Source of the DNA: an uncultured Planctomycetia bacterium
GTDB lineage: Bacteria > Planctomycetota > MHYJ01 > WSZJ01 > CAZWCX01
Assembly: GCA_964632945.1 (NCBI GenBank)
Contig: CAZWCX010000020.1
Location: 8,596 to 72,595 of the forward strand
Direction of reading: 5' to 3'
Length of the DNA stretch: 64,000 nucleotides
A program made the position numbers and the translations under genes. Below the pieces are notes generated by a model. It ran no database searches. It was not told where the DNA came from and saw only the letters and a program-made list of their open reading frames with translations. Positions 264-54,241 of this stretch are shown here, piece by piece (the stretch's first letter is position 1; every line of letters starts with the position of its first letter).

Positions 264-334
264 TCTCCCGGGGAGCGACCCGAAGGAACAAGCCCGCCAC
301 CATACCTGCGCGGCCGCAACGCGTCAACGATCGC

Positions 335-562
335 GTGGACGGAACCGGCCGCTGGCCCGGATATTCATGAAGCCGCGTCTGCGGCATCGGGCAGAATCCG
401 CCCGCGGGCTCCGCTGGCGGCGTCAGCAGCCGGGACCGCGGGGCGACCGGCGGGTGACACGGTGTCGCACGTCGGGCGAGGCAGTCCTGCTCTGGACGGC
501 CTTCATGGTCGGCCGGAGCCGGATGGTTCGCGAACCGCGAAGCGGTTCGTCATGGATCCGGG
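335..562. repeat. Copy A of a ~230-bp conserved intergenic element. It is about 86% identical to 10168-10394 and lies between the HK stop (563) and the sugar-transferase start (263).
   Basis: Direct comparison with 10168-10394 shows long identical runs: tcatgaagccgcg, atccgcccgcgggct, gaccgcggggcgaccggcg, ggcgaggcagtcctgct, ggtcggccggagccggatggttcgcgaaccgcgaag. It contains the palindromes ggttcgcgaacc and gacac-n-gtgtc. Confidence 0.75.
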
Positions 563-2403
563 CTACGCGGGGGACTCCGGGACGGAGAACGGCCGCCAGG
601 GCGCGGCTCCGGGCTCGAGTTCGATGCGATAGACGGTCCCCTCCTCCGGCACGTCGCGGGCGTCGATCCGGCAACCGAGGAGGTGGCAGAGTGCGCGGGA
701 CAGGGTGAGCTCGAGCCCGGGGCCGAGCCCGGGGGCGCCGTCGGTGCTGGGGGTGTGGAAGAGATCGAACATCGAGCCCGGCGCGTCGCGCGGGATGTGC
801 GCGCCCGGGTGGATGACTTCGATCGTCGCGGGACGCCCGCCGTCCCCGCCCGCGCCGACGCGGACCAGGATCCGGCCCGGCCGCGAGCCCTTGAGCGCGT
901 GGTCGATGACGTGGAGGAGGACCTGCCGCAATTTCACGGGGTCCGTTTCCAGCGGCGACAGCCCATCCGGAATCTCCGCGGCCAGTTCCACGCCCCGCGA
1001 CCGGGCCGGGAGTTCCAGCAGGTCGAGAACGTCGCGCACCAGCGCCCCGACCGAGACCGATCGGGTCGAGACGTCGACCCGGCCGGCTTCGATGCGCGAC
1101 AAGTCGAGGATCTTGTCGATCATCGCCAGCAGGCGGCTGCCGTTGTCGCGGATCTTCTCGGTGTAGGTGAGATCCTGGTCGCCGAGACGGCCCTCCTTGT
1201 TCTTGCGCAGGACGTTGGCGAAGCCGATTACCGAATTGAGGGGAGTGCGCAATTCGTGACTCACGTTGGCCAGGAACCGGCTCTTGGCCCGATTGGCCTC
1301 CTCGGCCGCGGTCTTGGCCTTCAGCAGCTCATCCGCCGCCTTGCGGTCGGTGATGTCATGTCCGACCGCGTAGAAGACCTGGTCTTCCGGGGACGGACCC
1401 GCGCTCCACAGAAACCAGCGCCAACCGCCGTCCTTGGTGCGAAGCCGCGCCTGGAAGGAGATCACCGACTCGCCCGCGCCCAGCCGGCGCACCAGATCTT
1501 CCGCGGCCGCGCGCTCCTCCTCATGGGTCAGGTGCAGGAATGAGATCGACTGCAACTCGGCGCGCGTGAATCCCGTAACCTTCTCCCAGGCCGGATTGAC
1601 CCGCCGGAACTGGCCGTCCAGTCCGCCGATGAAAAAGAGGTCGACGGCGAGCATGAAGAACTGGTCCAGCTCGGCGACCGCGCGCTTGCGCCGCGTGGTC
1701 TCGATGGCGAGTCGTTCGCGCAGGCCGACGGGACCGCGGAGATAGGCCTCGGCGTAGTGCTGGATGAAACCGGCGAGCCGCGGCTCCTCCTCGAGCAACG
1801 GCGTGAGGGTCGCGCGCACGTTGGGCTCCGACTCGGCGGACACCTGCGGGTGCATTTCGGACCATTGATGGCAGGCACGGAGGTGTTGCAGCAGGCAGGC
1901 CCAGGCCTCATACTTCCGGGAGCCGAGGACCCGCGCCAATTCGGTGCGGGCGCGTTCCGCGCCCGCCGGCTGCAGGTAGAGCAATTCCGTCAGCCAAAGC
2001 AGGTCCGCTTCCATCTCGCCGCCGGGGGCCGGCCAATCGGCCATCGACCCTGGGCTGATCGAGAGCCGCTCCACCGCCGCCTCGGCGTCCGCTTCCCCCG
2101 TGGGCCCGGGCTCGCGCAGCAAGGTGAAGATCTCCCGGCCCGGCACCCCGAGCGCGCGCAGGGCGCAAAGGTGGTGAACCAGGGCGTAGGACACGGGACA
2201 GGCACGCGACAGGCGGGTGCAGACCAGTTCCCGCAACCGGGGCGGGATCGGGGAATCCCAGTACCCGGCGCGCTCCTGCCGCCAGAGGACCGCCGCCATC
2301 TCCGCGGAGGTGCCGGGAGCGGTGAGCAGGGCCGGGACGTACCCAAGCCGGTCCTGGATTTCCTGTCGCAGGGTCTCCGGGAGGGCCCGGGAGCCCGCGA
2401 GCA
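563..2403 (-). CDS. PAS-domain sensor histidine kinase
   Basis: H-box motif ANVSHELRTPLNSVIGF, then a HATPase region (GLGLTLSRALCHLLGCRID), with a PAS-like region upstream. The start was taken at the ATG that encodes MLAGSRALPETLRQ (cat at 2401-2403). The upstream 284 aa of the track ORF 563..3256 are R/G/P low-complexity sequence overlapping the next gene, and I treated them as spurious. Confidence 0.7.
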
Positions 2404-2412
2404 TCCCGTGGC

Positions 2413-4323
2413 TCACGACCGTCGCTCCTCTCTGGCCCGGAGATCCAGATCGCGCAGGGCCTGCTCGAGATCGCGCTCGACCTTCTCCCAGCTCTGGTAC
2501 GCGGGGATACTCTCGGCCTCGACTCTCCCCAGGTCCGCGCGCACTTCCTCCCGGTCGCTGACCAGGACCACGGGAAGCCGCCGCAGACGGGTCTCGCGCC
2601 GGATCGCGTCGACGAACGGAAGACCCTCCCGCACCGGCGCGGCCAGACCGACGATGACCAGGTCGGGCGTGACCAGCCGCATACGCTCCATCGCCTCCGC
2701 GCAGGAATCGACGGCCAACAGTCGCGCCCCGGCCTCTTCCAGGTATTCCGCCATCAGCCGGCGGTCGTCCTCGTCCTCCTCGATCAGCAGGGCGAGAGGG
2801 GCGGGGGATCCGAACGAACGCTGCAGCAGGGCGCGCACGTCGCGGCGCGTGACCGGCTCGTCCAGGAAGTCGACCGCGCCGAGCACGATGCCCCGATTTT
2901 CCCTCGCCACGACGCTGACCACGACGACCGGAAGGTCGCGCGACTCCGGATCCGCGCGCAGCGCCCGCAGCACGTCCCAGGCACAGATGCGCGGCATCAT
3001 CAGGTCCAGGAGGATGAGATCCGGGCGTTGTTCCCGCGCCAGCCGCAGACCCTGCTCCCCGGAAGTGGCATGAATGGTTTCGAATCCGGCCCCTTGGACC
3101 CAGCGGGTGAGCAGGAGTCGGGAGTGGGACTCGTCGTCGATGACCAGGATCCGCGGGGACCGGAATCCGGCGGGGACCGGACGGGTCCCCGCGGGGTGGG
3201 AGCGGGACTCCGAACCGGGCCGTTCCGCGCCCGCCGGGGCGACCCGGATCGGCCACCCGAGGTGGACGCTGAAGGTGGAGCCCTTTCCCGGTTCACTCGC
3301 CGCGTCGATTCGAAACCCCATGCGATCGCAAAGCGAACGGGAGATCGCCAGTCCCAGCCCGGCCCCCTCCGCCGCCCGCGGACGCCCCGGATCGTTTTGA
3401 AACGGTTCGAACAGCGCCGCGACCTGGGCGCGCGCCATCCCCACGCCGGTATCGGCCACGTCGATCCGCACGGGACGCCGCGTCGACGGATCGACCTCGA
3501 CTCGCACGACCACCGATCCACGCGGGGTGAACTTGATCGCGTTGCCGATGAGATTGACCAGCACCTGCTTGAGTCGGTCGGCATCGGTTTGAATCGGCAG
3601 CGCCTCCGAGGGGAGCTCCGCAACCAGGCGGACCTCGCGTTCGCCGACCTGCGACTCCATCTGCGCCATCGTCTCCTTCACCAGCGTCTGAAGGGAGACG
3701 GGCGCGATCCTGAGTTCGAGATGGCCGGACTCGATCTTGGAGAGGTCGAGGATCTGGTTCACCAGGTTAAGCAGGTGAAGGGCATTTTCGTGGACACGAC
3801 CGACATAGGTCGCGTCCTGTTCGCCCAGGATGGGCGCGCCTTTCTTGAGCAGCAGGCGGGAGAAGCCGATGATCGAGCTCAGGGGGGTGCGCAGTTCGTG
3901 GCTCAGATTCGCGACGAACGAACTCCGGGCGTTGTCGACGTCGGCGGCCCGTTCGGCCGACATCTTGAGGGACTCCGTCTGGCGCTTGAGCACTTCATTC
4001 AGACGGCGGAGGGAAGTCTCACGCTCAAGCGCTTCGCGCAGGCGAAGGTCGAAGGCCGAAATGGCGGCGGCGAGGAAATCCGCCGCGCGCGCGGCGAGGG
4101 AAGTCCCGGCATCGCCGCGCTCCGCCAACGCCTCGGCCAACCCGGCGCGGTGTACCGCCAGGAGATCGCCCAACCCGAGGCCGTGCTGCAGCGCTTCCGG
4201 CCCCAGCGCGGCCGCCTCCTCCGCACCATGAGCCCTCTCCGCCGCAGCGAGGCTGCGGCGCAGCGCATGGGCATAGCGCTCGGAGAAGGAAAGGGGCGCA
4301 GAGTCGATGGCGCTTCTCCTCAT
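2413..4323 (-). CDS. Hybrid sensor histidine kinase with two C-terminal receiver domains
   Basis: HisKA motif FVANLSHELRTPLSSIIGF, a HATPase region (DTGVGMARAQVAALFEPF...GLGLAISRSL), then two REC domains (RILVIDDESHSRLL...DLILLDLMMP and a second APLALLIEEDEDDRRL...DLVIVGL). The start is the ATG encoding MRRSAIDS (4321-4323). The track's start at 4392 is a TTG and would overlap the upstream REC gene. Confidence 0.7.
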   Translation of the reverse strand: MRRSAIDSAPLSFSERYAHALRRSLAAAERAHGAEEAAALGPEALQHGLGLGDLLAVHRAGLAEALAERGDAGTSLAARAADFLAAAISAFDLRLREALERETSLRRLNEVLKRQTESLKMSAERAADVDNARSSFVANLSHELRTPLSSIIGFSRLLLKKGAPILGEQDATYVGRVHENALHLLNLVNQILDLSKIESGHLELRIAPVSLQTLVKETMAQMESQVGEREVRLVAELPSEALPIQTDADRLKQVLVNLIGNAIKFTPRGSVVVRVEVDPSTRRPVRIDVADTGVGMARAQVAALFEPFQNDPGRPRAAEGAGLGLAISRSLCDRMGFRIDAASEPGKGSTFSVHLGWPIRVAPAGAERPGSESRSHPAGTRPVPAGFRSPRILVIDDESHSRLLLTRWVQGAGFETIHATSGEQGLRLAREQRPDLILLDLMMPRICAWDVLRALRADPESRDLPVVVVSVVARENRGIVLGAVDFLDEPVTRRDVRALLQRSFGSPAPLALLIEEDEDDRRLMAEYLEEAGARLLAVDSCAEAMERMRLVTPDLVIVGLAAPVREGLPFVDAIRRETRLRRLPVVLVSDREEVRADLGRVEAESIPAYQSWEKVERDLEQALRDLDLRAREERRS

Positions 4324-4363
4324 GCGGATCCCGGAGCCGCCGCAGGCACCGTCCCGTTCACGG

Positions 4364-4771
4364 CTACCGGAGTCGCCGCGTGATCGCGCCAAGCAGCGCC
4401 ATTTCGTCCAGGATCGGCTTGGTCAGATAGTCGTCGAAGCCGGCTTGCAGAAACTTCTCCCGGTCCCCCGCCATCGCATGCGCGGTCAACGCGATGACCG
4501 GCAGCGACTTGAGACGATCGTGCGCCCGAATGTGCGAAAGCACTTCGACTCCATCCATGGTCGGAAGCGAGATGTCCAGGAGCACCAGGTCGGGCATGGC
4601 TCGCTGGAGCCCCTCGAGCGCCTCCTGGCCGTTTTCATACTCCCGAACATCGAATTGGTCATCCAGGATGGCGCGCAACAGCAAGCGATTGTCCGCATTA
4701 TCCTCCACCACCGCAATCGCTTTCTTCACTTCAACCTCCGACCAGGGAGAACCGGAATCTGCCTCGGTCAA
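4364..4771 (-). CDS. Single-domain response regulator (CheY-like receiver)
   Basis: AIAVVEDNADNRLLLRAIL...DLVLLDISLPTMDG...ALTAHAMAGDREKFLQAGFDDYLTKP. The phospho-acceptor Asp and the conserved Lys are in the expected context. Confidence 0.8.
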   Translation of the reverse strand: MTEADSGSPWSEVEVKKAIAVVEDNADNRLLLRAILDDQFDVREYENGQEALEGLQRAMPDLVLLDISLPTMDGVEVLSHIRAHDRLKSLPVIALTAHAMAGDREKFLQAGFDDYLTKPILDEMALLGAITRRLR

Positions 4772-5121
4772 CGGGCCGCCTCGAGCCAGGACTTGACCCG
4801 CGCGTACTCCGCCTCCAATTCGTCCAGCCGGGCGTTCACGTCGCCGAGCCGATTCGCCTCCCCCATTTCCTCCAACCGCTCACAGAGCGCCATCATCGCC
4901 ATGGCCCCCAGCTGTCCGCTGCTGGATTTCAGCGCGTGCATCGGCATCCGAACGGCGGCTCCGTCCCCCGTTGCCCCCCCCGCGCGGGCGCGCGCGATCC
5001 GTTCGGGCGTCTGGCGAACAAACAGGTCGATCAACTGCTGAAGGAGTTTTTCTCCCCCCAGACGCCGAAGCCGTTCGATGGCGGAATCGTCGGTGGCGGA
5101 ACGAGGCGAGACGTCGTACAT
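4768..5121 (-). CDS. Hpt (histidine phosphotransfer) domain protein
   Basis: Hpt signature HALKSSSGQLGAMAM within an all-alpha 117-aa protein. The start is the ATG at 5119-5121, preceded by a GAGGT-like SD. Its stop overlaps the start of the downstream REC gene. Confidence 0.7.
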   Translation of the reverse strand: MYDVSPRSATDDSAIERLRRLGGEKLLQQLIDLFVRQTPERIARARAGGATGDGAAVRMPMHALKSSSGQLGAMAMMALCERLEEMGEANRLGDVNARLDELEAEYARVKSWLEAAR

Positions 5122-5319
5122 GATCGTACCTCACAGCCAGACCCGGGGCGACTTCGCTCTCCCGGGGAGCCTGAACCCGGACCTCGAACTTGCCCGCGCC
5201 GGATTGCGCGGGAGGAGGCTCCCGCCCCCACGGACCGGGCTGAATCCGTTCCATCGGTCACCGTAGCCGACGCCCACGCCGATGTCAAGGCGGCGGCCGG
5301 GCGCGACCCGCCGTGCGCA

Positions 5320-5709
5320 TCAGGACGGCAGGACACACGGCTGGATCTGCCCCCCTTCGATCTGACCGATGACCTCCAGCAGCTCTTCGAGCGAGAACGG
5401 CTTTTCCAGATAGGCCAGGCAACCGTTCATCCGGGCCCGCGATTTGGTCTCCGGGTCCTTCCGTCCCGAGATTACCACGATCGGAATGTCGGAGGTGTCC
5501 CAGTGGCTGGTAATCCACTTCGCGAACTCATGCCCATCGATTCCGGGCATCATGATGTCCAGAAGGACGAGATCGAACCGGGCCATCTGGACGTACACCA
5601 TGGCTTCCCCGGCGGTCGCCGCGGTGGTCACATGGTGTCCGCGCCGCCCCAACAGCCCCCGCAGGAGCGTAAGGGTGTCCTTCTCGTCGTCGATCACCAG
5701 GATACGCAT
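5320..5709 (-). CDS. Single-domain response regulator (receiver)
   Basis: MRILVIDDEKDTLTLL...DLVLLDIMMPGIDG...KPFSLEEL. Its start overlaps the stop of the upstream REC gene at 5709. Confidence 0.8.
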   Translation of the reverse strand: MRILVIDDEKDTLTLLRGLLGRRGHHVTTAATAGEAMVYVQMARFDLVLLDIMMPGIDGHEFAKWITSHWDTSDIPIVVISGRKDPETKSRARMNGCLAYLEKPFSLEELLEVIGQIEGGQIQPCVLPS

Positions 5710-6116
5710 CAGGCTTCTCCTTGCGGCTGCCAGCGCAGCGCCTCTTCCACGCCTTCGACCAGGGTCCGTTCGTGGGCCGGCTTGTACAGGTAACGACAGA
5801 CCGTCTCCAGCCCGTCCAACCCGCTGCCGACCGGAAACGAACTCGCGCCCGTGATCATGACCACCGGAATGCGGGCGGTGGCGGCGCGCTGGGAGAGCTC
5901 GCGGGCGATTTCGATGCCGTTCCGGCCGGGGAGCAGGATGTCCATCAGAATCACGTCGGGTTTGAGGGTCTCCACGCGTTGCAGCGCCTGCTCCCCGCTC
6001 TCGGCGATGTTTACCGCGTAGCCGACGCTCTTCAGGATATGAGAATGCACCATGGCCGTAGCCAGGTCATCTTCCACCACCAGCACCCTTCGGATCCGCG
6101 TCGCGGCCGTGGTCAT
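5709..6116 (-). CDS. Single-domain response regulator (receiver)
   Basis: RVLVVEDDLATAMVHSHIL...DVILMDILLPGRNG...ITGASS...YLYKP. Confidence 0.8.
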   Translation of the reverse strand: MTTAATRIRRVLVVEDDLATAMVHSHILKSVGYAVNIAESGEQALQRVETLKPDVILMDILLPGRNGIEIARELSQRAATARIPVVMITGASSFPVGSGLDGLETVCRYLYKPAHERTLVEGVEEALRWQPQGEA

Positions 6117-6208
6117 CGAGGCTCACCTCAAAACAGGGACCGATGCAGGTCCAAAACCCCAAGGTCCGCCGGCGCGGAACCGAAGTCCCGGCGCCGCCGC
6201 GGAGATCG

Positions 6209-7081
6209 TCACTCGCGCACGCGCACGAGCAGCAGGGGGGACGGCACGGAGTGGAGCACCTTCTCCGTCGTCCCGCCGAAGAACAAGGCCCGGAAACCGC
6301 TGCGACCGTGCGTGGTCATGGCCACCAGATCCGCCCGCCATTCCGCGGCCGCCTTCTGGATCTCGACCGAGGGCTCACCCTGCCGCAGGACAGGCTCTCC
6401 GGCCCGCACGCCCCGCTCCTTCAGTGTGGCGGTCAACCGGTCCAGGTAGACCTTTCCCTCTTCCGTCAGTTTCTTCGCCGGACCGCCGAAGCGTGTGCGC
6501 AGGATCGTGTTCATCGGCACGACATGGAGGAGGCGCACCTCGGCATCACAGCGACGCAGGAATTCGCCGACTTCCTTCAGGATCACCTCTGCGGTCGGCG
6601 ACCCGTCGAGAGGGATCAGGATGCGTTCGAACTTCCCCGGCGGCAGCGACACGTCCGGCACCCCGCCCTCCTGGATGCGAACCAGGAACATGGGGGTCGA
6701 GAGGACGCGGAGACACTTGTGCGCCACGCTGCCGAATCCGTGCCCCGGACGGCCGCTGGCGCCGTGGGTCGCCATGGCCACCAGGTCGATCGCGGTGCCG
6801 CGCACGTAGGTTTCGATCGCCTCGTGCGCCGGTCCGGCCGCCATGTCCCAGCGCACCCGTCCGCCCCGCGATTCCAGAATTCGGCGGAGGGTCTCGAGAT
6901 ACTGCGCGGTCTCCTCTTCGCTGGACAACTTCAAGTCCACGCCTGCCCCCGCCGCGACCGATTCCGCCACTCGCAGCAGGTGGACCTCCGCCTCAAACAG
7001 GTGCGCCAACCGCTCCGCAAACGGCAAGGCATTTTCCGCATACCGGGAGCCGTCCAGCGGGACCAGGATTCTTCGATACAT
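6209..7081 (-). CDS. Universal stress protein with tandem UspA domains
   Basis: Two Usp-like halves: MYRRILVPLDGSRYAENAL...ATHGASGRPGHGFGSVA and ERILIPLDGSPTAEVIL...HGRSGFRALFFGGTTEKVL. It is the first gene of the minus-strand operon that continues into the phosphorelay genes. Confidence 0.75.
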   Translation of the reverse strand: MYRRILVPLDGSRYAENALPFAERLAHLFEAEVHLLRVAESVAAGAGVDLKLSSEEETAQYLETLRRILESRGGRVRWDMAAGPAHEAIETYVRGTAIDLVAMATHGASGRPGHGFGSVAHKCLRVLSTPMFLVRIQEGGVPDVSLPPGKFERILIPLDGSPTAEVILKEVGEFLRRCDAEVRLLHVVPMNTILRTRFGGPAKKLTEEGKVYLDRLTATLKERGVRAGEPVLRQGEPSVEIQKAAAEWRADLVAMTTHGRSGFRALFFGGTTEKVLHSVPSPLLLVRVRE

Positions 7082-7694
7082 GGACTCTCCTTCCCTCTGC
7101 CCCGGCTCGGAGGGGCAAAGTACTCCGGTTTCGGAACTGCTGCACTACTGCGACTCGCAAATTCTACGCCGGGAGAAACCTGTGATCGGCGGAGGTGACA
7201 GCGCCTCGCGCAGATGACCCAAGTGGTTTGGACCGGCGCAATCACGGTGACTCTCCAGACCGAGAATCGCACCGGCGAGCGGGTGGCCAGGACGACGGGC
7301 GTCTCGCTCGTGCGACATTGCCGCTCCGAGATCCCACCATTGTGACAGATTTGCTCGGGGCGATCTTGCCGGCCGGGGGCCGAAGGGACTTTGCGCCCGG
7401 GCGCCGCCGGCGTCGCCCTCCCATTCTCACGGGAGAGGATGCGGCGGCGCGGCTGGACCGCCGGGGGGTTCCCGCTAGAACGCCACGACCGTGCCGAAGT
7501 CGGCACGTGGGTTGCTGCCCTTCATCTTCTGTGCCGTGCGGCGGCGCGAGACGAGTTGGAACCAGGATCCTCCGACGCGGAGCGGGGACCCCTCGGCTTC
7601 GTTCGCGGATCGGCCGAACGGGGAAGAGGAGGCGATTCCCCGGACAGGGAGGGAACGGCGCCAAGGCGAGTGTGGATCCTGCAGGAGGCATCCC

Positions 7695-8606
7695 ATGTTT
7701 GAACGAATCGTCATCCCGCTGAACGGCACGCCGCACGCCGAGGCGGTGATTCCCGAGGCGCTCAAGTACTTCCATTCCCCGAACCTGGAACTCGATCTGC
7801 TCACGGTGGTGGATCCGGAGTCCACGCGCCTCGCCACCGCGGCGCCGACCGTCACCTCGAGCGGGCATGCCGCCAAGGAGTACCTGGATCGGATGGCGCA
7901 CAATCTCGAGGAGCGGGGCATTCATGCCCGCGTGGACGTGCGGTTCGGCCCCACGCCCGCGAAGATCCTGGAGCATGCCACGCAGTCGCGCGCGAGTTTG
8001 ATTGCGATCGCGACGCGCGGCCGATCCGGGCTCGGCCGATTGGTGCGGGGCAGCACGGCAGAGTCGGTCCTGCGGAAGTCGCCGGTCCCGCTGTTGATGA
8101 TCCGCGGCGGGGGCAATCTTCCGGCGGCGGCCGAATCCGCGCGTCCGGGCGGTATACCCCGCATCCTGGTGCCGCTGGACGGCACCATGGAGGCGGAATC
8201 GATCCTCCCGTACGCCCGTTATCTTTGCCGGCGGGTCAAGGGCCGGATCGAACTGTTGCGCGTGATCGAGTTCATTCCCGTCCTGCATGGGGACGAGGGG
8301 GTGATGGAAGGTGCGTTCGACCACGCGACGTTGGGAGCGGGCGACTACCTGCGCGGGATGGGCGACCGGCTGCGGGAGGACGGGCTCGAAGTGGAGCAGA
8401 CGGTCGTCCGCGCGTCCCCGACCGAAGGGATCCTGGACCGGGCGAATTCCGGAACGATCCACCTGGTGGCGATGTCCACGCACGGACGTCGCGGCATCCG
8501 GCGCCTGCTCCTCGGCAGCATCGTGGAGTCCGTGCTCCGCCAGTTGCGGGTGCCTCTCTTCACGATGCGCCTGCGCGCGACGGTCCCGGCATCCGATCCG
8601 TCGTGA
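7695..8606 (+). CDS. Universal stress protein with tandem UspA domains
   Basis: MFERIVIPLNGTPHAE...ATRGRSGLGRLVRGSTAESVL and RILVPLDGTMEAESIL...THGRRGIRRLLLGSIVESVL. The start ATG at 7695 has AGGAGG 7 nt upstream. The track ORF begins at 7491 with an unsupported N-terminal extension. Confidence 0.75.
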   Translation: MFERIVIPLNGTPHAEAVIPEALKYFHSPNLELDLLTVVDPESTRLATAAPTVTSSGHAAKEYLDRMAHNLEERGIHARVDVRFGPTPAKILEHATQSRASLIAIATRGRSGLGRLVRGSTAESVLRKSPVPLLMIRGGGNLPAAAESARPGGIPRILVPLDGTMEAESILPYARYLCRRVKGRIELLRVIEFIPVLHGDEGVMEGAFDHATLGAGDYLRGMGDRLREDGLEVEQTVVRASPTEGILDRANSGTIHLVAMSTHGRRGIRRLLLGSIVESVLRQLRVPLFTMRLRATVPASDPS

Positions 8607-8677
8607 CGTCGGGCCGCTGGGGGTCCGATCCCGACCGGCCGGAGAAGCCCGGCGGGGCGGGGCGCGACCGCGGCCCC

Positions 8678-10066
8678 TCAGCCGCGGAACTGCTCCGGGT
8701 TGATCTCGTGTTTCTTCAGCAGGCGATAGAGGGTCCCGCGCGGAATCTTGGCCTCGCGCGCCGCCGCCGTCACCTCCCCCTCATAGGAGCGCAGCAGCGC
8801 GCTCAGGTATTCCTTCTCGAACGCGGCCACGCGCTGGGAGCGGAGCGCGAAGAAGCCGCTGCGATCGGCCGCCCCGGGTTCCCCGGCCTTGAGCACGACA
8901 TCCTCGGGCAGATCCTCGGGCGTGAGCATGGGGTGCCGTGTCAGGGCCATGGTCCGACCGATCACGTTTTGAAGTTCCCGCACATTCCCCGGCCAGGGGT
9001 AGCGACAGAGGATTTCGAGCATCTCCGGATCCACCTGCACCACCCCCTTCCCCATTTCGCGGGAGTAGCGCTCGACGAAGTGCTGCACCAGCAGGGGAAT
9101 GTCCTCCGGCCGTTCGCGCAACGGCGGGAGCGTGATTCGCGCGACGTGGATCCGGTAATACAAATCCTCCCGAAAGCGCTTTTCCCGCATCTCCTCGGCG
9201 AGGTCGCGATTGGTGGCGGCCAGGACGCGAACGTCGACGGTGATTTCCTCGTGCCCCCCGACGCGACGAAACCGCCGTTCCTGCAGGGTGCGCAGCAGCT
9301 TGGCCTGCATCGGCAACGGCAACTCGGCGATCTCGTCGAGGAACAACGTCCCATTATCCGCGAACTCGAGCAACCCCATGCTTCGGCTGGTTGCCCCGGT
9401 GAAGGCGCCGCGCTCATGACCGAAGAACTCGCTCTCCAGCAGATTCTCCGGAATCGCCGCGCAATCGGCGGGCACGAAACGCTGTCCGGAGCGCGCGCTC
9501 AGGGCATGGATTCGTCGCGCCACGAGTTCCTTTCCGGTCCCCGTCTCGCCGACGATCAACACGTCGACGTCGGTCTCGGCCACTTTCTGGATCGTGTCCA
9601 TGACGGTGAGGACGGAGGGGCTCCGGCCCACGATCTGCTCGCTCGGACCATTGCGGCCGATCTGGCGCTGGAGCAGTTCGTTCTCCTCGCGCAACCTCCG
9701 CCCGTCGAGAAGACGCCGGACGGTGGCCAGCAGATCGTCGGGAAGCAGGGGCTTGGTGACGTAGTCCGAGGCCCCGAGCTTGAGGCAGTCGACTGCCGTT
9801 TCGACCTTGGGGTAGGCGGTAATCACGACGACCGAAAGATCCGGGTGGAACTTCCGGGCCACTTTGAGCAATTCCACCCCGTCCATTTCCGGCATGCACA
9901 TGTCGGTCAGGAGCAGGTCGAAGCTCTCCGCTTCGAGGCGTTTGGCCGCCCGTCGGCTCTGCGTTTCGAGAACGACCTCGGCATTGGCGAGTTTCTCGAG
10001 CGTGGCAGCGCAGATCAGCAGCGTGTCTTCTGCGTCGTCCACGACCAGGATGCGGGACTTGGTCAT
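8678..10066 (-). CDS. Sigma-54-dependent transcriptional regulator (NtrC family: REC + AAA+ sigma-54 activator + Fis-type HTH)
   Basis: Receiver domain (RILVVDDAEDTLL...DLLLTDMCMPEMDG), Walker A GETGTGKE, sigma-54 contact motif GAFTGA (ERGAFTGATSR), arginine finger region, and a C-terminal HTH (AAREAKIPRGTLYRLLKK). The start ATG is at 10064-10066, preceded by GGAGG. Confidence 0.85.
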   Translation of the reverse strand: MTKSRILVVDDAEDTLLICAATLEKLANAEVVLETQSRRAAKRLEAESFDLLLTDMCMPEMDGVELLKVARKFHPDLSVVVITAYPKVETAVDCLKLGASDYVTKPLLPDDLLATVRRLLDGRRLREENELLQRQIGRNGPSEQIVGRSPSVLTVMDTIQKVAETDVDVLIVGETGTGKELVARRIHALSARSGQRFVPADCAAIPENLLESEFFGHERGAFTGATSRSMGLLEFADNGTLFLDEIAELPLPMQAKLLRTLQERRFRRVGGHEEITVDVRVLAATNRDLAEEMREKRFREDLYYRIHVARITLPPLRERPEDIPLLVQHFVERYSREMGKGVVQVDPEMLEILCRYPWPGNVRELQNVIGRTMALTRHPMLTPEDLPEDVVLKAGEPGAADRSGFFALRSQRVAAFEKEYLSALLRSYEGEVTAAAREAKIPRGTLYRLLKKHEINPEQFRG

Positions 10067-10167
10067 GGCGGCCCTCCTACCATCCCCCACCGGTTGCGTT
10101 TATTGTACCGGCGCTGGGACAGGCGAACAAGGGGCCTGACGGCCCGCCGAAAGGCGCGGTAACGCGA

Positions 10168-10394
10168 GTGGAACACCGCCCGCCAGCCCGGATTAGTCAT
10201 GAAGCCGCGTCGGCGGCTTCGGGAAGCATCCGCCCGCGGGCTCCTGGCTGCGTCCGCAGCCAGGACCGCGGGGCGACCGGCGTGCGACACACGGTGTCGC
10301 AGGCTGGGCGAGGCAGTCCTGCTCCGGACCGCCTTCCCGGTCGGCCGGAGCCGGATGGTTCGCGAACCGCGAAGGGGTTCGCGTATCATCCGCG
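10168..10394. repeat. Copy B of the ~230-bp conserved intergenic element. It lies between the lipoprotein stop (10395) and the sigma-54 regulator start (10066).
   Basis: About 86% identical to 335-562 in the same orientation and the same relative context. In this copy a perfect hairpin cctggctgc-gtcc-gcagccagg replaces a weaker hairpin at the same position in copy A. Confidence 0.75.
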
Positions 10395-10874
10395 CTAGGG
10401 GGTCTTGCGCAGGGGGCGGCCGCAGCACCACCCCTCGACGTTGTACGTCTTTCGGCAGGCGTTGCACTGCCAGCCGGACGGGGGCAGCTCGGCGAACTTG
10501 CGTCCGTCGGGCGCTTCGAAGACGGGGCCGACCGGTTCGTCCCGGCCCGCTGCGCGGGGCGGATCGGACGGGGGGGATCCCCGCCGCGAGCGCGCCTCCG
10601 CCGGCGTCGTCGCGGCCCCCGCGGGTTCGGGGGCGGCGGTCACGGTCGCGGCCGCGGGAGGCGCCTCGGGGGTCGGTCGCCGGTCGGGCGGCGCCGCCTC
10701 CGGCGCGGGGGTGGTGGCGGATCGGGGGGCGGGGGAAGTCGCACCCCGCGACGCCCGGTACGCCTCGTAGGCGGAGGAGGACCCGCCCGATCCCGTCAGG
10801 TACGAGGTCCTCCCGTCCGGCGCGGCGGAACAGCCGGCGAGAGCGACGGCCAGGACGAGCGGCAGCGCGCGCAT
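10395..10874 (-). CDS. Lipoprotein with a Cys-rich C-terminus
   Basis: MRALPLVLAVALAGCSA gives a lipobox LAGC. The protein is Ala/Pro/Thr-rich and ends with a C-terminal CNACRKTYNVEGWCCG cluster. The start was taken at the ATG encoding MRALPL. Confidence is modest because the protein is low-complexity. Confidence 0.45.
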   Translation of the reverse strand: MRALPLVLAVALAGCSAAPDGRTSYLTGSGGSSSAYEAYRASRGATSPAPRSATTPAPEAAPPDRRPTPEAPPAAATVTAAPEPAGAATTPAEARSRRGSPPSDPPRAAGRDEPVGPVFEAPDGRKFAELPPSGWQCNACRKTYNVEGWCCGRPLRKTP

Positions 10875-14000: not shown

Positions 14001-14282
14001 TCACTCTTGATGCCCCTCGATCTGGATCGTCATCGTCCGGCGCGCCGTTTCCACGCCGTCCCATTCCTCGGTGATCTCGAGCGTCAAGTCGAACATGTCG
14101 ACATGGTAAATGCGCTGGTACTCCTCGGACTTTCCGTCCACGTCCACGGCCCCCTTCATCCGCAGCCAGTATTCGCCCGGCCGCTCCATGTTCTTGGAGG
14201 CCTCCTGGATGGCGAGCTGGATCAACGCCTCCTCGTTTCCCACGCGGATGCGAAACTCGCCGTGGTCCGGTTTCTCGAGCAT
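14001..14282 (-). CDS. Small (93 aa) dodecin-like / DUF1458-like protein
   Basis: MLEKPDHGEFRIRVGNEEALIQLAIQEASKNMERPGEYWLRMKGAVDVDGKSEEYQRIYHVDMFDLTLEI matches the beta-alpha-beta-beta pattern and spacing of dodecin-family proteins. GGAGG lies directly upstream of the ATG at 14280-14282. The rest of track ORF 14001..14909 is R/G-rich and I rejected it. Confidence 0.5.
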   Translation of the reverse strand: MLEKPDHGEFRIRVGNEEALIQLAIQEASKNMERPGEYWLRMKGAVDVDGKSEEYQRIYHVDMFDLTLEITEEWDGVETARRTMTIQIEGHQE

Positions 14283-14449
14283 CGAGAACCTCCGGGCGAG
14301 GAGGACATCGCGCCCTGCGCCTGCGTCGGCGGCCCACGCGCGGGCCGCCGCGTGTCCGTCGGGGGACCGACCCACGGCCCCGGGGAGGTCGGAGCGCCGG
14401 TCCGCGATCCGGACGTCGCGAGACGCAGCGATCCGCCCCCGTCCGCATG

Positions 14450-14740
14450 CTAGTTTGACCTTTCTTCCGTCCCAACGCAAGCCCGCTCCGGCCGCAGGAG
14501 CGATGACTCGACCCCCGGAAGCCGCAGGACCCCGTCGATCCGATACCGAATGCGCACGCCTGCGGGGAACCACTCGAGGTGTAGGTCGCTGGCGTCTCGC
14601 CGAATCGCGTCGAGCAGAACCGTATCGATGAAGGCGCCGCCCGGCCGGTCCAGGCCGGACGGGGCATCGGCTTCGGCCGTCAGATCGAGTACGCCGGTGG
14701 CGGCGCGGGCCGTGATCGGTGCGGGGGCATCCATGAGCAT
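14450..14740 (-). pseudogene. Remnant of a GspE/PilB-type (T2SS/T4P) secretion ATPase gene. Only about 50 aa of the N-terminal region of the ATPase domain remain.
   Basis: AFIDTVLLDAIRRDASDLHLEWFPAGVRIRYRIDGVL closely resembles the conserved PilB/GspE segment (…ILTDAIKRKASDIHIEP…RVRFRIDGVL). The frame then stops after ~20 more residues, and no Walker box follows in any minus frame. Confidence 0.5.
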
Positions 14741-15002
14741 CTTCCTGGTTGAAGACGCGCAGGAGGACGCAAGTGAACGCCCGCCGGCCCGCCGACGGCG
14801 TGATTCGGCGGTGGATCAAGGGCCGCAACGGGTTCCGACCGTCCCCGAGCACGCGACTCCGGCCGCGGCGGCCGGATCCGCCGGACAGAATCGTACGCCA
14901 GGCGCTCACCGGCGCTCATCGGCATCCGAGGAACCCACGGGGTCGAGGACGGCTGGGGCAGCACGCGAGGGAGGCCCCGGCCGGCGGGGACGGTCCTCCG
15001 GG

Positions 15003-16853
15003 TCATCGGCGCGGTCGTGGCGCCGAGGTCGGGTGCTCACCGGCGGGAGGGGTCGTCAGGGCTCCCACGAAGCACGCTCTCCCCCGCTTCTTTCTTCGCG
15101 AAATGGGCGCGACGGTGAATGCCTGCGCGGCGGAGAAGGCCGTCGCGTTTCCCAGCGTATCCCGCGCCCGAATCCTCCAGAACAAGTTCCCGGTGCCGAA
15201 CGACCTCACGGCCGCGCGCACGTGAGGCTCCTCCACCGTGAGCTGGAAGAGCACCGTGTCGAACAGGGCCGACGCCGAGACCTGCAGGTCGTAGTTCAGG
15301 ATCCCGTTCGGATCCGCCGCCGCCGACCAGACGAAGTCCACGAATTCGACCGCGCCGACGTTCACGCCGCCCACCGGAGACTGAGGTACCGGAGCCGCTC
15401 CGGCCGTGGTATCGATCGTGAAATCGGTTTCCGCCGAGTAGTCTCGAATCGCCTCCGCGCGCCCGGAAGGATACTCGCGGCTGAACAGGTCGACTCCCGC
15501 GGCCGCACTCCCGCCATCGCGATAGCGAACCTGCCAGAAGTACGTGCCGTCGGGAAGCGCGGGAATCGTCACCCGCGTGAGGTCGCCGCCGGTCACGCCG
15601 GAGTCGAACACCGTCACCGACCAGTCCGCGGGAGATCCCGCCGCCCGGACCCGCCATTGACTGGCCGTGTGGAGATCGAAGGCCGGAGGACCGGCGGCTC
15701 CATTCGGATCCGCGAAGGCGGAGGAGGACAGGGTCGGTGTCGAAGTCGCCATGAGCGCCCCGGGTGCGGGGCCAAGATTGACCGGCTGCGCGGGGTGGAA
15801 ATTGACCGCCCGGTCGAGGAGCGTTCCCGCGCCGCCGGATGCCCCCGGCGGACCGCCTGGATCGGGGCCCGGAGCGCCGCCGGCCCCTCCGGACGGCACC
15901 GGCGGCAGGATCCCGGTGACGGTGTCGCGAAGAATCTTGATCCGGCCCCCGCCTCCGCCCGCGCCGCCGCCCGAGGGATCGATGCTGGGTCCCGCCCCGG
16001 AGACGCCGCCGGCGCCCGCACCACCGTCCGCGCGCACGATCGCCGCCGCCCCGAATCGCAAGTCCGGCGCGCACAGCAGGATCCCCCCGCCCGAGCCTCC
16101 ACCCCCACCGCCCGCGCCGGTCCCGTCCGCAGGCGCAATCCCCGCATTGCCGCCCGCGCCGTTCATCGACAGCGTCCCGTTCACGAACAACGATTCCTGG
16201 GCGATCAGCAGCAGGCTCGCCCCACCCGCGCCCCCATCCCCGCCCGTCGCTCCGGGGAGGTCTCCGCCACCGCCGCCGCCTCCGGAACCGGGGTTGAGGT
16301 CCTGATCGGGGGGCGGAGCCGCGGGGGTGTTGGCCGCGGCGGCAAACACCGGCGGCGCCGGATTGTCGTGGGCGGGACCGCCGGGGCCCGTGGCGCCGGC
16401 GCCATGCCCCCCCGCTCCGCCATGCCCCCCACCACCGCCACCGTCCCGGCTATTGGCAGCGGCCCCCGTGCCTCCGCCCGCTCCACTCCCGTTCGTCGAT
16501 GGCACCGTGGGAGGACCGCCGATCCCGCCGGCGCCCCCGGCGCCGTCTCCGCGAACCGCCCCGTCGATCACGATCACCCGCGCGCGAATGACCAGTCGAT
16601 TCCCCGTCGAGGGCGCGTCGCCCGTCACCGTCACCGTCACGCCGGTTGAAATCGTAAACGTGTCGATGTTGAAGTACTCCCCCTCCATCGCCTGATCCGC
16701 GGCAATCGTGAGGTTGCCGCCGCCCCCGTCCATCGCGGCATTGGGGCCCGACGGGGCCTGCGCCCGCGCCTCCTGCGGCGCCAACACCCCGAGACAAGCC
16801 CCAAGCCACCCGCACGCGGCGGCGGTGTACCACGCCCGGACCCCGATTCTCAT
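15003..16853 (-). CDS. Large secreted glycine-rich repeat protein with C-terminal Fn3-like domains
   Basis: Signal peptide MRIGVRAWYTAAACGWLGACLGVLAPQEARAQA. About 350 aa of G-rich repeats follow (GGAGG...IxIxA...GxGG, probably beta-helix-like), then two Fn3-like modules (DGTYFWQVRYRD...; ILNYDLQVSA...FWRIRARDTLGNATAFSAAQAFTV). The start ATG at 16851-16853 is preceded by AGGAGG and overlaps the stop of the upstream gene (16850-16852). Confidence 0.6.
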   Translation of the reverse strand: MRIGVRAWYTAAACGWLGACLGVLAPQEARAQAPSGPNAAMDGGGGNLTIAADQAMEGEYFNIDTFTISTGVTVTVTGDAPSTGNRLVIRARVIVIDGAVRGDGAGGAGGIGGPPTVPSTNGSGAGGGTGAAANSRDGGGGGGHGGAGGHGAGATGPGGPAHDNPAPPVFAAAANTPAAPPPDQDLNPGSGGGGGGGDLPGATGGDGGAGGASLLLIAQESLFVNGTLSMNGAGGNAGIAPADGTGAGGGGGGSGGGILLCAPDLRFGAAAIVRADGGAGAGGVSGAGPSIDPSGGGAGGGGGRIKILRDTVTGILPPVPSGGAGGAPGPDPGGPPGASGGAGTLLDRAVNFHPAQPVNLGPAPGALMATSTPTLSSSAFADPNGAAGPPAFDLHTASQWRVRAAGSPADWSVTVFDSGVTGGDLTRVTIPALPDGTYFWQVRYRDGGSAAAGVDLFSREYPSGRAEAIRDYSAETDFTIDTTAGAAPVPQSPVGGVNVGAVEFVDFVWSAAADPNGILNYDLQVSASALFDTVLFQLTVEEPHVRAAVRSFGTGNLFWRIRARDTLGNATAFSAAQAFTVAPISRRKKRGRACFVGALTTPPAGEHPTSAPRPRR

Positions 16854-17845
16854 CGCCGAACCCCTCCTGTCATCCATCCCGAATCTCCCGCCTCGAGGGC
16901 CAACGTTTGCCAGGCATTTCGAGCCGCCCCGCGGAGGTCTTCCCCCGCGGTTCGGCTCATCCACTGCAGCGAATCCAGAACCGCCGGGGTCACCGGTGGC
17001 CCGGGAAAGGCGCGACCGAGGCGCACCAGGGTCGTGAGGGCCTGGTCGGACGCCATGCCGCCGAGCCCGATCACCACGGCGAGGAGCGCCGGGGGCCCGA
17101 GCGCGCTGTCCGGGTGGAGCGCCGCCCCGGCCAGGCGCATCAGCACGCATTCCGCTTGCGGGTTCCCCACGCTCCTCAGCACCCGGCCCAGGGCTACCGC
17201 TTCCGCAAGGTCCCGGACCCCCTCCACCTCACCGGCCACCTGCGCCGCACACTCGGGGTGCACCCGGATCAGTCCGGCGATCGCCCCGATCACCCGAGGT
17301 TCCACGAACGGGGCGCCGGACGGCAAGGCCGCTTCCCGGCGACGCAAGCGACGAAACAGCATCGACACGAGGTCCTTCGGAGAGACGTGCGCGTCCCCAT
17401 CCGATCGCCGCTCCCCGGACCAGGGCGCGACCGCGCGGGGAACGCCCCCCCACCCGAACGCATCGGGCCCCTCCGCAAGCGGACTGGGATCCGATTCCAG
17501 CCCGCGTTGCCGCTGACGGTCTCTTCCCGGAGGGAGGGGCGTGACCGGCCGTGTCTCCCCGGCCGCCGTCGCCGATCCGCTCCCGACCGGCGCCGTGGCA
17601 ACGCCCCCCGCCGGCGTCGTTCGGCGGCGCCCCTCGCCCGGGCGCACCGAGCGGCGTCCGCCCGACCCGATCGACCGGCCGGGGCGCGCGCCGTCCTCCG
17701 GGGCCGCTTCCGGCGATCGCGTCCCCCCCCGACCGTCGCATGGCGCCCGGCGCTGCGCGTCGTCGTGCCGAAGTGTCACGATTGAAACGCCCGCGGAAAG
17801 AGCCAGGAAGACGGCCATCATCAGCTGCCGCATTCGCGCGTCCAT
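16850..17845 (-). CDS. Hypothetical membrane-anchored protein with a C-terminal helical (HEAT/ARM-like) domain
   Basis: The start ATG (17843-17845) encodes MDARMRQLMMAVFLALSAGVSIVTL, a TM or signal anchor. A Gly/Arg-rich linker and a ~170-aa alpha-helical C-terminus follow. The gene is translationally coupled to the Gly-rich protein gene. Confidence 0.5.
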   Translation of the reverse strand: MDARMRQLMMAVFLALSAGVSIVTLRHDDAQRRAPCDGRGGTRSPEAAPEDGARPGRSIGSGGRRSVRPGEGRRRTTPAGGVATAPVGSGSATAAGETRPVTPLPPGRDRQRQRGLESDPSPLAEGPDAFGWGGVPRAVAPWSGERRSDGDAHVSPKDLVSMLFRRLRRREAALPSGAPFVEPRVIGAIAGLIRVHPECAAQVAGEVEGVRDLAEAVALGRVLRSVGNPQAECVLMRLAGAALHPDSALGPPALLAVVIGLGGMASDQALTTLVRLGRAFPGPPVTPAVLDSLQWMSRTAGEDLRGAARNAWQTLALEAGDSGWMTGGVRR

Positions 17846-17853
17846 ACGACCTC

Positions 17854-18204
17854 CTATCGATGCTGCCAGCACCGACCGCCGCCCTTGACCATCCGACGGC
17901 ACGGGGCGCCGGTCGTCTTCGTCGGCGCGCCGCACGGATGGCTCATCCCGGAATCCGCCCCGGGGTCCGGCCTTGGCTCGGATCCGGGGCGGACCGCCGG
18001 GGCGTCGACCCGACCCGTCCGTTCCCATCGCTCGATCCGCGCCTCGAGTTGCTCGACGCGCAGCCACAACCGGTCGAACTCTTCGGCCGTGGGACGCCCG
18101 GCAGCAAGGGGGGCCGGATCCTCCTCTGCTCCCACGATCGCCCATCCGGCGAGCAGGACGAGCAGCGCCACGAGAACGGGTCCGTATCGACGGGGTGCGG
18201 GCAT
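17854..18204 (-). CDS. Small protein with N-terminal TM/signal, coiled coil and C-terminal Cys cluster
   Basis: MPAPRRYGPVLVALLVLLAGWAIVGA, then EEFDRLWLRVEQLEARIERWERTG (coiled coil), then the C-terminus CGAPTKTTGAPCRRMVKGGGRCWQH. The ATG at 18202-18204 is preceded by GGAGGAG. It is the first gene of the three-gene operon. Confidence 0.5.
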   Translation of the reverse strand: MPAPRRYGPVLVALLVLLAGWAIVGAEEDPAPLAAGRPTAEEFDRLWLRVEQLEARIERWERTGRVDAPAVRPGSEPRPDPGADSGMSHPCGAPTKTTGAPCRRMVKGGGRCWQHR

Positions 18205-18480
18205 GGGTGTCTCCTCCAATCGACAGACGAAGGGCGATTCCGAACCTCCCACCCCCGCGGCTTCCTGCCGCGGCGCACCGGCAGCGGGCGACGGCCGATT
18301 CCCCGGGAGCCCCCGGCGCGCCGGTGGGCGGAGACTACGACAACGGATGGACAGGATAGGTCCCGCAGGGCGGAAAATTTTTTCGGCCCCGGGATTTCGG
18401 GCTTGTGGGACCTCCCCTGTCACTCGGGTCCGCTACACTTCCTCCCGTCCGAATGCCGGTGCGAACGCGAAGGGACCGCC

Positions 18481-35244: not shown

Positions 35245-35302
35245 GGCCGGGCCGGCGCGGGAGGCCGGTCCTTCCCGTCGCCGACCGGGCGAGCGGCGCT
35301 TC

Positions 35303-42043: not shown

Positions 42044-42442
42044 CCTTGTTCCTGGAATTTGGACTCGGGGACAGCCTGTACCCCAGGCGGGTGGATGGGT
42101 TCCGATTGCGTCGGGGGGGAGGAATCAGCGTCGGCAGAGACGTTACCAGATTCTGGATGCTGGTGTCAAAGAGGTTCCAAGAAGTTGCATCCACTTCCGG
42201 GCGATCGAAAGGCGGCAGGGAAGAGGCCGGACCCTGGGGTTCGCATCCGGGAGCACCCGCGACCCCGCAGCGGCGGAAAGTCCAGGGCGTCCCGGCCGAC
42301 GTGCCGGATCCGGGGACGCCCGGCGCGCGCAGGCCACCGAGCGGCCGGCTCGCGAACCGGGGGTCGGGGGAACATCTCCCTCGCTCCGCCCGGGGCGCCC
42401 CGGACGGGAACCTTCGTCCCCCGTCGCTTCAGGACACCCGCG

Positions 42443-52627: not shown

Positions 52628-52744
52628 TCGTCCCGGATCCGTGCGACCCCGAGGTTCGTCGTCATGACCTCACGCGGCCCCCGCTCGACTTCGCGTGGCG
52701 GGCCGAGATCGGATCTCCGCAACCCCGTTTGCCCGGGAGGACGA

Positions 52745-54241
52745 ATGGAATCGAACGTCCGGCACGGTCTTCATCGATTTCGCCTCATCGGGCTCGCGTT
52801 CCTCGCTTTCGTGGCGACGGTCGCCGGCGTCGGCGCCCAGGCGGATCCGCCGAATCCGCAACTCCCCTCGTGGGTAGCGCAGGTGCAGAGGGACGGCGAT
52901 CCGGCGCTCATCCCGGCCACGCCGGAGTGGGCGACCCTGCCCCCGGAACTGCGGGAGCGGATCCTCGGCTCCATCGCCACCCGCATGAAGGCCGAACCCG
53001 CACTCCTCCAAGAGGATCTCCCCGGCCCGGATTGGCCCCGTCTGTTCCTGGCCGCGTATCGGGGCCAGACCGACATCGTCCGCCTGTTGCTCGATCTCGG
53101 GGCCAAGACGCAGGCCCTCATCGATGCCAACCGGGGCGAGGGTGGGTCGCTGAAAATGCCGACCTCGGTCCTGCACGCCGCGCTTGCCATGATGCGGCCC
53201 ATGACGGATGAGCCCCCCGGGTGCTCGCCGGAAACCGTCCGCCTGCTGCTGTCGCGAGGAGAAGACGCGAACGAGACTCTGGATCGAAGCCTCGTGCGTT
53301 TCACCGTCCCACTTCACGCGGCGGTATTCGCCGGCGAGGAGTTCGTCCAGATCCTGCTGGATCACGGAGCAGATGTCCATGCCCTCGACCCGGAGGGGAA
53401 CTCGGTGATGCACCTGGTGGAGAAGACAGGAATTGCCGTGCGCCTGGCCGTCGCCGGGGCGCGCCTCGACGTTCGAAACTCGGAGGGGCACACCCCGCTC
53501 GAATGGGCGGCTTTGCACACCGGGAGGATGGAGATCGCGGAATGGTTGGTCGCGCAGGGGTGGCCGATGACCGCGGAGATTGCCGCAGTCATGGGGCGGA
53601 CGGAATTCGTGATGCAGGCCGTCGCAACGGATCCCGAACTCCTCCACGAACCCGGCGCCTATCGGCGGACCTTGCTCCACCACGCCGCCGCTCGCGGACA
53701 TGCCGACCTGGGGCGGCGACTTCTGCGCGCGGGCGCCAAGGTGGACGTTGTCGACTTGATGCGCCGCACTCCGCAGGAGTACGCGTTGATGATGAACTGC
53801 GAAGACCTGGTCCGGGCCCTGCTAGACCAAGGAGCCGACGTCAACCAGGTGAGCAGCAGCGGAGAGCCCCTGTTCCACCAGGCCATCTTCGCCAGTGATT
53901 CCCTGACCCGACTGCTGCTCGAACGCGGTGCGGATCCGGGCCGGACCGGCGACACGGGGGAGACGCCCTTGCACCCGGCCGTCCGGAGCGGCAGAGCGGA
54001 GACGGTGACTTTCCTGATCGAGCGGGGCGTTCCGATCGATGCGCCGTCCAAAAACGGCGATACCCCGCTCCTGACGGCCCTTCGTCGCAGCTACCATCCC
54101 CGGAATCCCGCGGTGGTTCGCGTCCTGCTGGAAGCGGGGGCGGATCCCAATGTGCAGGCCCATGACGGTCTCACCCCGATGCATCTGGCATCCGATCTCC
54201 CCGCCGTCCAACTGCTCCTCCGGCGACACGGCGCCCGTTGA
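52745..54241 (+). CDS. Secreted ankyrin-repeat protein
   Basis: Signal peptide MESNVRHGLHRFRLIGLAFLAFVATVAGVGAQA. At least 8 ANK repeats (…TPLEWAALHTGRMEIAEWLVAQG…, …TLLHHAAARGHADLGRRLLRAGAKVD…, …TPLHPAVRSGRAETVTFLIERGVPID…). The ATG has GGGAGGA upstream. Confidence 0.75.
   Translation: MESNVRHGLHRFRLIGLAFLAFVATVAGVGAQADPPNPQLPSWVAQVQRDGDPALIPATPEWATLPPELRERILGSIATRMKAEPALLQEDLPGPDWPRLFLAAYRGQTDIVRLLLDLGAKTQALIDANRGEGGSLKMPTSVLHAALAMMRPMTDEPPGCSPETVRLLLSRGEDANETLDRSLVRFTVPLHAAVFAGEEFVQILLDHGADVHALDPEGNSVMHLVEKTGIAVRLAVAGARLDVRNSEGHTPLEWAALHTGRMEIAEWLVAQGWPMTAEIAAVMGRTEFVMQAVATDPELLHEPGAYRRTLLHHAAARGHADLGRRLLRAGAKVDVVDLMRRTPQEYALMMNCEDLVRALLDQGADVNQVSSSGEPLFHQAIFASDSLTRLLLERGADPGRTGDTGETPLHPAVRSGRAETVTFLIERGVPIDAPSKNGDTPLLTALRRSYHPRNPAVVRVLLEAGADPNVQAHDGLTPMHLASDLPAVQLLLRRHGAR

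Follow-up and report, generated by a model that had tools for sequence, protein, structure and literature searches.

Two copies of a non-coding DNA element of about 230 bp have been identified as direct repeats in the window, i.e. the whole 64-kb stretch of DNA analysed here. Our preferred interpretation, tentative and held at somewhat less than even confidence, is that the element is an interspersed repeat of the REP/BIME/ERIC type, intergenic and specific to its lineage, probably co-transcribed with the upstream gene as a block of hairpins at its 3' end. Between an ordinary lineage-specific repeat and a new regulatory RNA, the former is the most likely. The two copies are located as follows.

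335 to 562: copy A, a decayed copy, with a solid core at 344-549.
10168 to 10394: copy B, the intact copy, with a solid core at 10175-10381.

The copies have the same orientation and lie 9.83 kb apart. Their homology, first proposed in a preliminary description of this DNA, is confirmed: blastn aligns them at 87.6% identity over a core of 209 nt (344-549 versus 10175-10381, E=2e-69), and a profile made of the two copies spans positions 330-569 and 10160-10401 in nhmmer searches, with E about 1e-77. The copies are distinguished by three indels of 1, 2 and 2 nt and by substitutions of all types (12 transitions and 26 transversions), and the longest block of identity shared by the two measures 36 nt. 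The boundaries of the repeat are sharp at both ends. Similarity of the flanks is not significant, as the best left and right alignments were reached by 59 and 300, respectively, of 1000 shuffles. The repeat thus stands as a unit of its own and does not belong to a larger segmental duplication, in accordance with what had been noted at the outset. For the same lack of significant flank similarity, a candidate -35 box directed outward at the edge of copy A was discarded. No third copy was found in the 64-kb window by nhmmer run with all filters off (--max), and no sharp break in composition was observed at either copy in a scan of the window.

All the genes flanking the two copies are on the minus strand. 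The features relevant to the location of the element are listed below.

299..327, minus strand: predicted sigma-70-like promoter TTGACG-17-TATGGT (9/12 matches, 0 expected in shuffles).
563..565, minus strand: TAG stop codon of the PAS histidine kinase gene, directly abutting copy A and outside the repeat.
563-2416, minus strand: PAS histidine kinase, 617 aa, identical to P0125.
4364-4771, 5320-5709 and 5709-6116: three single-domain receiver proteins, encoded between the copies.
8678-10066, minus strand: NtrC-family sigma-54 response regulator, downstream of copy B.
10102..10130, minus strand: predicted sigma-70-like promoter TTGTTC-17-TACAAT of the sigma-54 response regulator gene.
10395..10397, minus strand: TAG stop codon of an orphan lipoprotein gene, directly abutting copy B and outside the repeat.
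10395-10874, minus strand: lipoprotein P0121, 159 aa, Pro/Ala-rich, with the lipobox LAGC.

The element thus starts exactly at the upstream stop codon at both loci, in agreement with the preliminary description, the complements of TAG being found at 563-565 and 10395-10397. From copy B to the following ATG there are 101 nt, approximately as had been reported (102 nt); for copy A, where the ATG is at 253, the distance is 81 nt (254-334), and the earlier figure of 72 nt has to be amended. The gene downstream of copy A is represented in the window only by an N-terminal fragment of 84 aa which matches no family, and the label of sugar transferase initially given to it finds no support. The closest homolog of the PAS histidine kinase P0125 is 47% identical. 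Among 5.8 billion proteins no homolog was found of lipoprotein P0121, which has a Cys-rich C-terminus (CNAC...WCCG).

Both predicted promoters fall between the element and a start codon. The sequence TTGACG-17-TATGGT (327->299) separates copy A from the ATG at 253, and the pattern TTGTYC-N16-18-TASAAT has a single match in the window (10130->10102), with 0 expected. The element is separated from the -35 box by about 8 nt in copy A versus about 38 nt in copy B. Inspection by eye revealed no motif of a sigma-54 promoter. Since each copy is found between a TAG stop codon and the predicted promoter of the next gene, the element would not be a 5' leader; judged on the predicted promoters, it is not placed between a transcription start and a start codon, as riboswitches and 5' leaders are. 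The hypothesis of a leader RNA advanced earlier is consequently disfavoured.

The 9.6 kb separating the copies (563-10066) host a dense signalling cluster, in which the PAS histidine kinase, a hybrid histidine kinase, the three receivers and the sigma-54 regulator are accompanied by two tandem-Usp proteins. Transposases, RAYTs, integrases and reverse transcriptases are all missing among the scanned ORFs, which are most of the ORFs of the window; in the same set no IS200/IS605-like ORF was found, and no tRNA gene is present in the window. At 8607-8677 the convergent Usp and sigma-54 regulator genes have in common a long G+C-rich hairpin lacking U-tracts, which looks like a bidirectional terminator, and a similar arrangement is found at 35245-35302.

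Other genes of the window are worth describing in their own right. The ORF at 35303-42124 (minus strand) encodes 2273 aa and includes Ser/Thr protein kinase, AAA_16/MalT-like TPR, GGDEF, GAF, sigma-54 interaction and HTH_8 domains; this sigma-54 activator, fused to a kinase, is unusually large, and its ORF harbours an internal repeat of 85 nt (36731-36815 versus 37799-37883, 72% identity). Ankyrin repeats, which are relatively uncommon in free-living bacteria, are found in the product of 52628-54241 (plus strand) and, fused at the C-terminus of an asparaginase, in that of 55597-57108 (plus strand). A 1114-aa ORF at 17545-20889 (plus strand) combines an Hsp70-like segment with C-terminal TPR repeats. 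The adjacent region of about 3.5 kb (14001-17544) features long ORFs overlapping on both strands, with no Pfam match.

The element does not code for protein: its reading frames are thrown out of register between the copies by one deletion and one insertion, each of 2 nt, and no frame yields a product conserved in both. Eight ORFs cross the element, and none (0/8) is present in the protein collection, where the adjoining lipoprotein is included. No related protein was matched by the 76-aa ORF running across copy B in a phmmer search of 1.84 billion representatives; the matches obtained were satellite-like repeats of eukaryotes in translated form, plus a single Cys-rich repeat protein that is unrelated. 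Read-through of the UAG codons, assisted by a PYLIS-like signal, was also considered and rejected, the in-frame extension measuring 19 aa in copy A versus 2 aa in copy B, with no conservation.

The element is made of five adjacent imperfect palindromes, G+C-rich and 22-44 nt long each. Those of copy B, numbered from the one nearest to the stop codon of the upstream gene, and two of their counterparts in copy A, are as follows.

10352..10392: copy B, hairpin 1, CGGATGGTTCGCGAACC / GGTTCGCGTATCATCCG, arms of 17 nt, 88% complementary.
10312..10333: copy B, hairpin 2, GGCAGTCC-TGCTCC-GGACCGCC, defined from sequence and folds.
10274..10310: copy B, hairpin 3, CGACCGGCGTGCGACAC / GTGTCGCAGGCTGGGCG, arms of 17 nt, 82% complementary, including GACAC-ACG-GTGTC.
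10234..10273: copy B, hairpin 4, CCGCGGGCTCCTGGCTGCG / CGCAGCCAGGACCGCGGGG, arms of 19 nt, 84% complementary.
10189..10232: copy B, hairpin 5, CGGATTAGTCATGAAGCCGC / GCGGCTTCGGGAAGCATCCG, arms of 20 nt, 75% complementary.
519..561: copy A, hairpin 1, CCGGATGGTTCGCGAACCGC / GCGGTTCGTCATGGATCCGG, arms of 20 nt, 75% complementary, with the 12-bp palindrome at 525-536.
401..442: copy A, hairpin 4, arms of 16 nt, 81% complementary, with mismatches relative to copy B.

Hairpin 1 of copy B encloses a perfect 12-bp palindrome, GGTTCGCGAACC, found at 10357-10368 and, in copy A, at 525-536. This sequence and the palindrome GACAC-N1/3-GTGTC are common to the two copies, and both had already been recognized in the preliminary description. 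The five hairpins are unrelated to each other and exhibit no tandem periodicity; the sole likeness among the units is the CGGAT...ATCCG stem that closes hairpin 1 as well as hairpin 5. No canonical intrinsic terminator (a G+C-rich hairpin followed by a U-tract) was detected at the element, and neither a conserved promoter nor a U-tract terminator bounds it on either strand. Other stop codons in the window are likewise followed by G+C-rich hairpins lacking U-tracts.

Copy B contains the most stable 120-nt fold found anywhere in the window, with z-scores of -6.8 (plus strand) and -7.0 (minus strand). The folds of copy A are weaker on both strands (-3.5 and -2.1, respectively). The equal folding of the two strands of copy B denotes a near-perfect Watson-Crick palindromy of the DNA rather than a strand-specific RNA. 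When the fold of copy B, which includes 93 pairs, is taken as reference, 70 pairs are unchanged in copy A, 7 are kept as wobbles and 16 are broken, with 0 compensatory changes, a pattern expected of a decaying repeat. RNAalifold reported one double change on the plus strand, in the poorly aligned ends, and none on the minus strand. The alignment of the two copies folds at -108 kcal/mol on the plus strand versus -94 kcal/mol on the minus strand, with six wobble-compatible changes. On the whole neither covariation nor strand asymmetry was found, in a comparison that, being limited to two sequences, has little statistical power. The shift in register of hairpin 1, previously taken as a compensatory-like change, results from one substitution and a diverged 3' tail, and both registers are partly possible in each copy; this part of the initial interpretation is not upheld.

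Searches for relatives of the element were negative in all the collections examined. No match to Rfam families was obtained for the whole window at the gathering threshold, in line with the early remark that the element resembled no common riboswitch class, and permissive Rfam searches of both loci gave chance-level hits only (best sub-threshold E >= 0.6). Exact 20-mer scanning of 185,579 GTDB species genomes, among which the source genome is absent, revealed no relative; the four matches of a 20-mer from the 36-nt identical block are all due to chance and are confined to 20-33 nt. Similarly, 94 stretches were retrieved by an exact 18-mer from JGI metagenomes, again a collection from which the source genome is absent, and all are chance matches, none extending beyond about 48 nt. 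Scans of IMG/VR and blastn searches of plasmids and phages gave no match to the element, and no additional copy emerged when all the loci fetched by the k-mer scans were analysed by nhmmer --max.

The only close relative available for comparison is a Logan contig, L005. The regulator encoded by L005 is 75% identical to the sigma-54 regulator of the window, and the convergent Usp gene is syntenic, its product being 51% identical. The predicted promoter of the L005 regulator gene, TTGTCC-18-TAGAAT (518-547, plus strand), is in a place equivalent to that of the window promoter at 10102-10130 (minus strand). A short CTCGCG...CGCGCC sequence, located just upstream of the -35 box, appears to be common to L005 and the window. 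The L005 spacer upstream of the regulator measures 124 nt and bears no trace of the element, which is thus dispensable for the regulator gene. The gene upstream of this spacer in L005 is a different one, so that the locus does not amount to a clean empty site.

Several families of bacterial repeats resemble the element. REP and BIME sequences, described in Enterobacteria, Pseudomonas and Stenotrophomonas, are imperfect palindromes of extragenic DNA, rich in G+C and able to form stem-loops, frequently in clusters and frequently 3' of genes; the element is likewise composed of extragenic G+C-rich imperfect palindromes with stem-loop potential. BIMEs are assembled from repeated REP units of one family. 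In contrast, the element features five mutually unrelated hairpins. REP/BIME families also reach a high copy number and go with a cognate RAYT transposase; of the element two copies are known, and no RAYT is present among the scanned ORFs. Effects of REP and BIME sequences on the stability of mRNA and on recombination are documented (PMC3184786). ERIC/RIME sequences are similar to the element in being non-coding, 100-250 bp long and imperfectly palindromic; they are found in transcribed intergenic regions, and their transcription together with the preceding gene is probable for the element too, but they consist of one long stem instead of five independent hairpins. ERIC-type repeats carry terminal inverted repeats, target-site duplications and a flanking TA (PMC3184786); the element has no sequence similarity to ERIC, its inverted repeats are weak or absent, and no target-site duplication is associated with it. 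Bacterial MITEs, such as the Correia, RUP and Chunjie elements, are like the element intergenic sequences of about 230 bp without a transposase, and form stable stem-loops. MITEs are defined by terminal inverted repeats and target-site duplications. The best terminal inverted repeat of copy A, GCCCGGAT...ATCCGGGC with a weak extension, has a score of 17, reached by 14/500 shuffles, and that of copy B a score of 13, reached by 150/500 shuffles; no consistent direct repeat of at least 4 nt occurs at matching boundaries of the two copies. The element shares with MITEs the size (<400 bp) and the non-coding character, but shows no convincing terminal inverted repeats and no target-site duplication, and it is known from two copies, both in the 64 kb of the window. 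The SPRITE-type repeats of S. pneumoniae are found, as the element, just after gene ends, and their predicted structure suggests a role in termination; the element is much longer, contains several hairpins and lacks a U-tract. Of the three readings offered earlier (a dispersed regulatory module, a leader RNA, a MITE-like repeat), that of a repeat, in the sense of a dispersed one, fits best. As convincing hallmarks of MITEs are missing and the hairpins are not multiples of a single REP unit, the element can be assigned to the general category of repeats only.

The interpretation as a repeat is based on the discrete and non-coding nature of the unit, the palindromy of both strands, the site between stop codon and predicted promoter, the coexistence of an intact and a decaying copy, and the absence from the equivalent spacer of L005. 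It is weakened by the number of known copies, which are two, both within 10 kb, by the lack of convincing terminal inverted repeats, of a target-site duplication, of a canonical terminator and, among the scanned ORFs, of a transposase, RAYT or integrase, by the diversity of the five hairpins, and by the different upstream gene of L005. The small number of copies would be accounted for by a one-off local duplication, in which a single event of ectopic recombination or gene conversion copied a stretch of 230 bp while the signalling cluster was being assembled, leaving two copies in total of a sequence endowed with neither mobility nor function of its own. The proximity and direct orientation of the copies, the decay of copy A, the absence of convincing terminal inverted repeats, of target-site duplications and, among the scanned ORFs, of transposases, and the lack of anything similar in collections from which the source genome is absent, are all in keeping with such an event. 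The chance capture of five whole palindromes, landing twice in the interval from stop codon to promoter, would however be rare, and the sharp boundaries, the unrelated flanks and the identical position relative to the stop codon in the two copies also make a casual duplication unlikely. The same copies may be seen as attL/attR-like ends of an integrated or excisable signalling island of 9.6 kb, since direct repeats bracket a coherent set of genes (two histidine kinases, three receivers, two Usp, the sigma-54 regulator). Yet neither integrases nor recombinases were found inside or beside the interval, no marked compositional break is observed, the repeats are no more than 87% identical, and typical att cores are much shorter; we regard this as highly improbable. 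Diversity-generating retroelements, with the copies as template and variable repeats, were discarded because the substitutions include every type and the scanned ORFs contain no reverse transcriptase.

Functional alternatives can be envisaged at the RNA as well as at the DNA level. The two copies could be paralogs of a functional structured RNA, either a cis-acting 3'-UTR element of the upstream genes or an sRNA of about 230 nt, transcribed independently and regulating the two-component/sigma-54 cluster that they bracket. The exceptional stability of the fold of copy B (z about -7), the somewhat better fold of the plus-strand alignment with its six wobble-compatible changes, and the maintenance of identical blocks up to 36 nt would suit such an RNA. 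In contrast, the pairs broken in copy A, none of which is compensated, the z-scores lacking strand asymmetry, the missing promoter and terminator at the edges of the element, the lack of Rfam matches and the absence of the element upstream of the orthologous L005 regulator all speak against it, so that an RNA function seems to us as doubtful as a casual duplication. Two more specific candidates were dismissed by eye: a Qrr-like sigma-54-dependent sRNA beside a LuxO-like regulator, because a GG-N10-GC promoter is not conserved in both copies, and a CsrA/RsmA sponge, because GGA motifs are neither enriched nor conserved in the loops. Alternatively, the element could be an operator module working as DNA, in which the palindromes TTCGCGAA, GACAC-N-GTGTC, CCGCGG and TCATGA co-regulate the two downstream genes, i.e. 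the glycosyl-transferase-like gene and the sigma-54 regulator gene. Location immediately upstream of both predicted promoters and conservation of the perfect 12-bp palindrome in both copies are what would be expected of operators. The distance from the -35 box varies, nonetheless, by about 30 nt between the copies, 230 bp at 87% identity go far beyond the needs of a shared operator, and the 12-bp palindrome is not enriched in the window (11 occurrences with up to two mismatches versus 8.7 expected). Along with the failure to see sigma-54 motifs by eye and the lack of the element next to the L005 ortholog, this leaves little room for an operator module, to which we assign a low probability. Equally slight is the chance that the element is the founding example of a hitherto undescribed class of hairpin arrays, in either of two versions considered jointly. 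In one, an RNA of about 230 nt and five stem-loops could be encoded by paralogs that bracket and regulate the two-component/sigma-54 cluster; in the other, hairpins formed by single-strand DNA could serve some mobilisation or recombination system that moves clusters of this kind.

If the element is an interspersed repeat, as we favour, the unit itself would have been copied to both sites by a transposition system or by ectopic recombination. Since it directly follows a stop codon and precedes the predicted promoter of the next gene, its transcription would be limited to the 3' tail of the mRNA from the upstream minus-strand gene. Many bacterial repeats are found at the 3' ends of genes, are co-transcribed and affect mRNA stability (Delihas 2011, PMC3184786). 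In the 3' tail, the stem-loops of the element may provide termination without a U-tract and a barrier to 3' exonucleases, and in this way may insulate the downstream promoter. The run of 36 identical bp might also let the two repeats undergo homologous recombination with each other, across the signalling cluster of 9.6 kb.

At present, with two copies and a purely putative function, the element is a modest curiosity and not a discovery. Should it turn out to be a genome-wide family, it would represent a new family of repeats in a barely sampled uncultured lineage of high G+C content, in which the nearest ortholog of the regulator reaches 75% identity, the nearest homolog of the kinase 47%, and the lipoprotein has no homolog. 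The family could then serve to type strains and to locate breakpoints in assemblies, and would offer a natural example of hairpin blocks insulating tandem genes. In addition, the signalling cluster of 9.6 kb may be lost or amplified by recombination between the two repeats.
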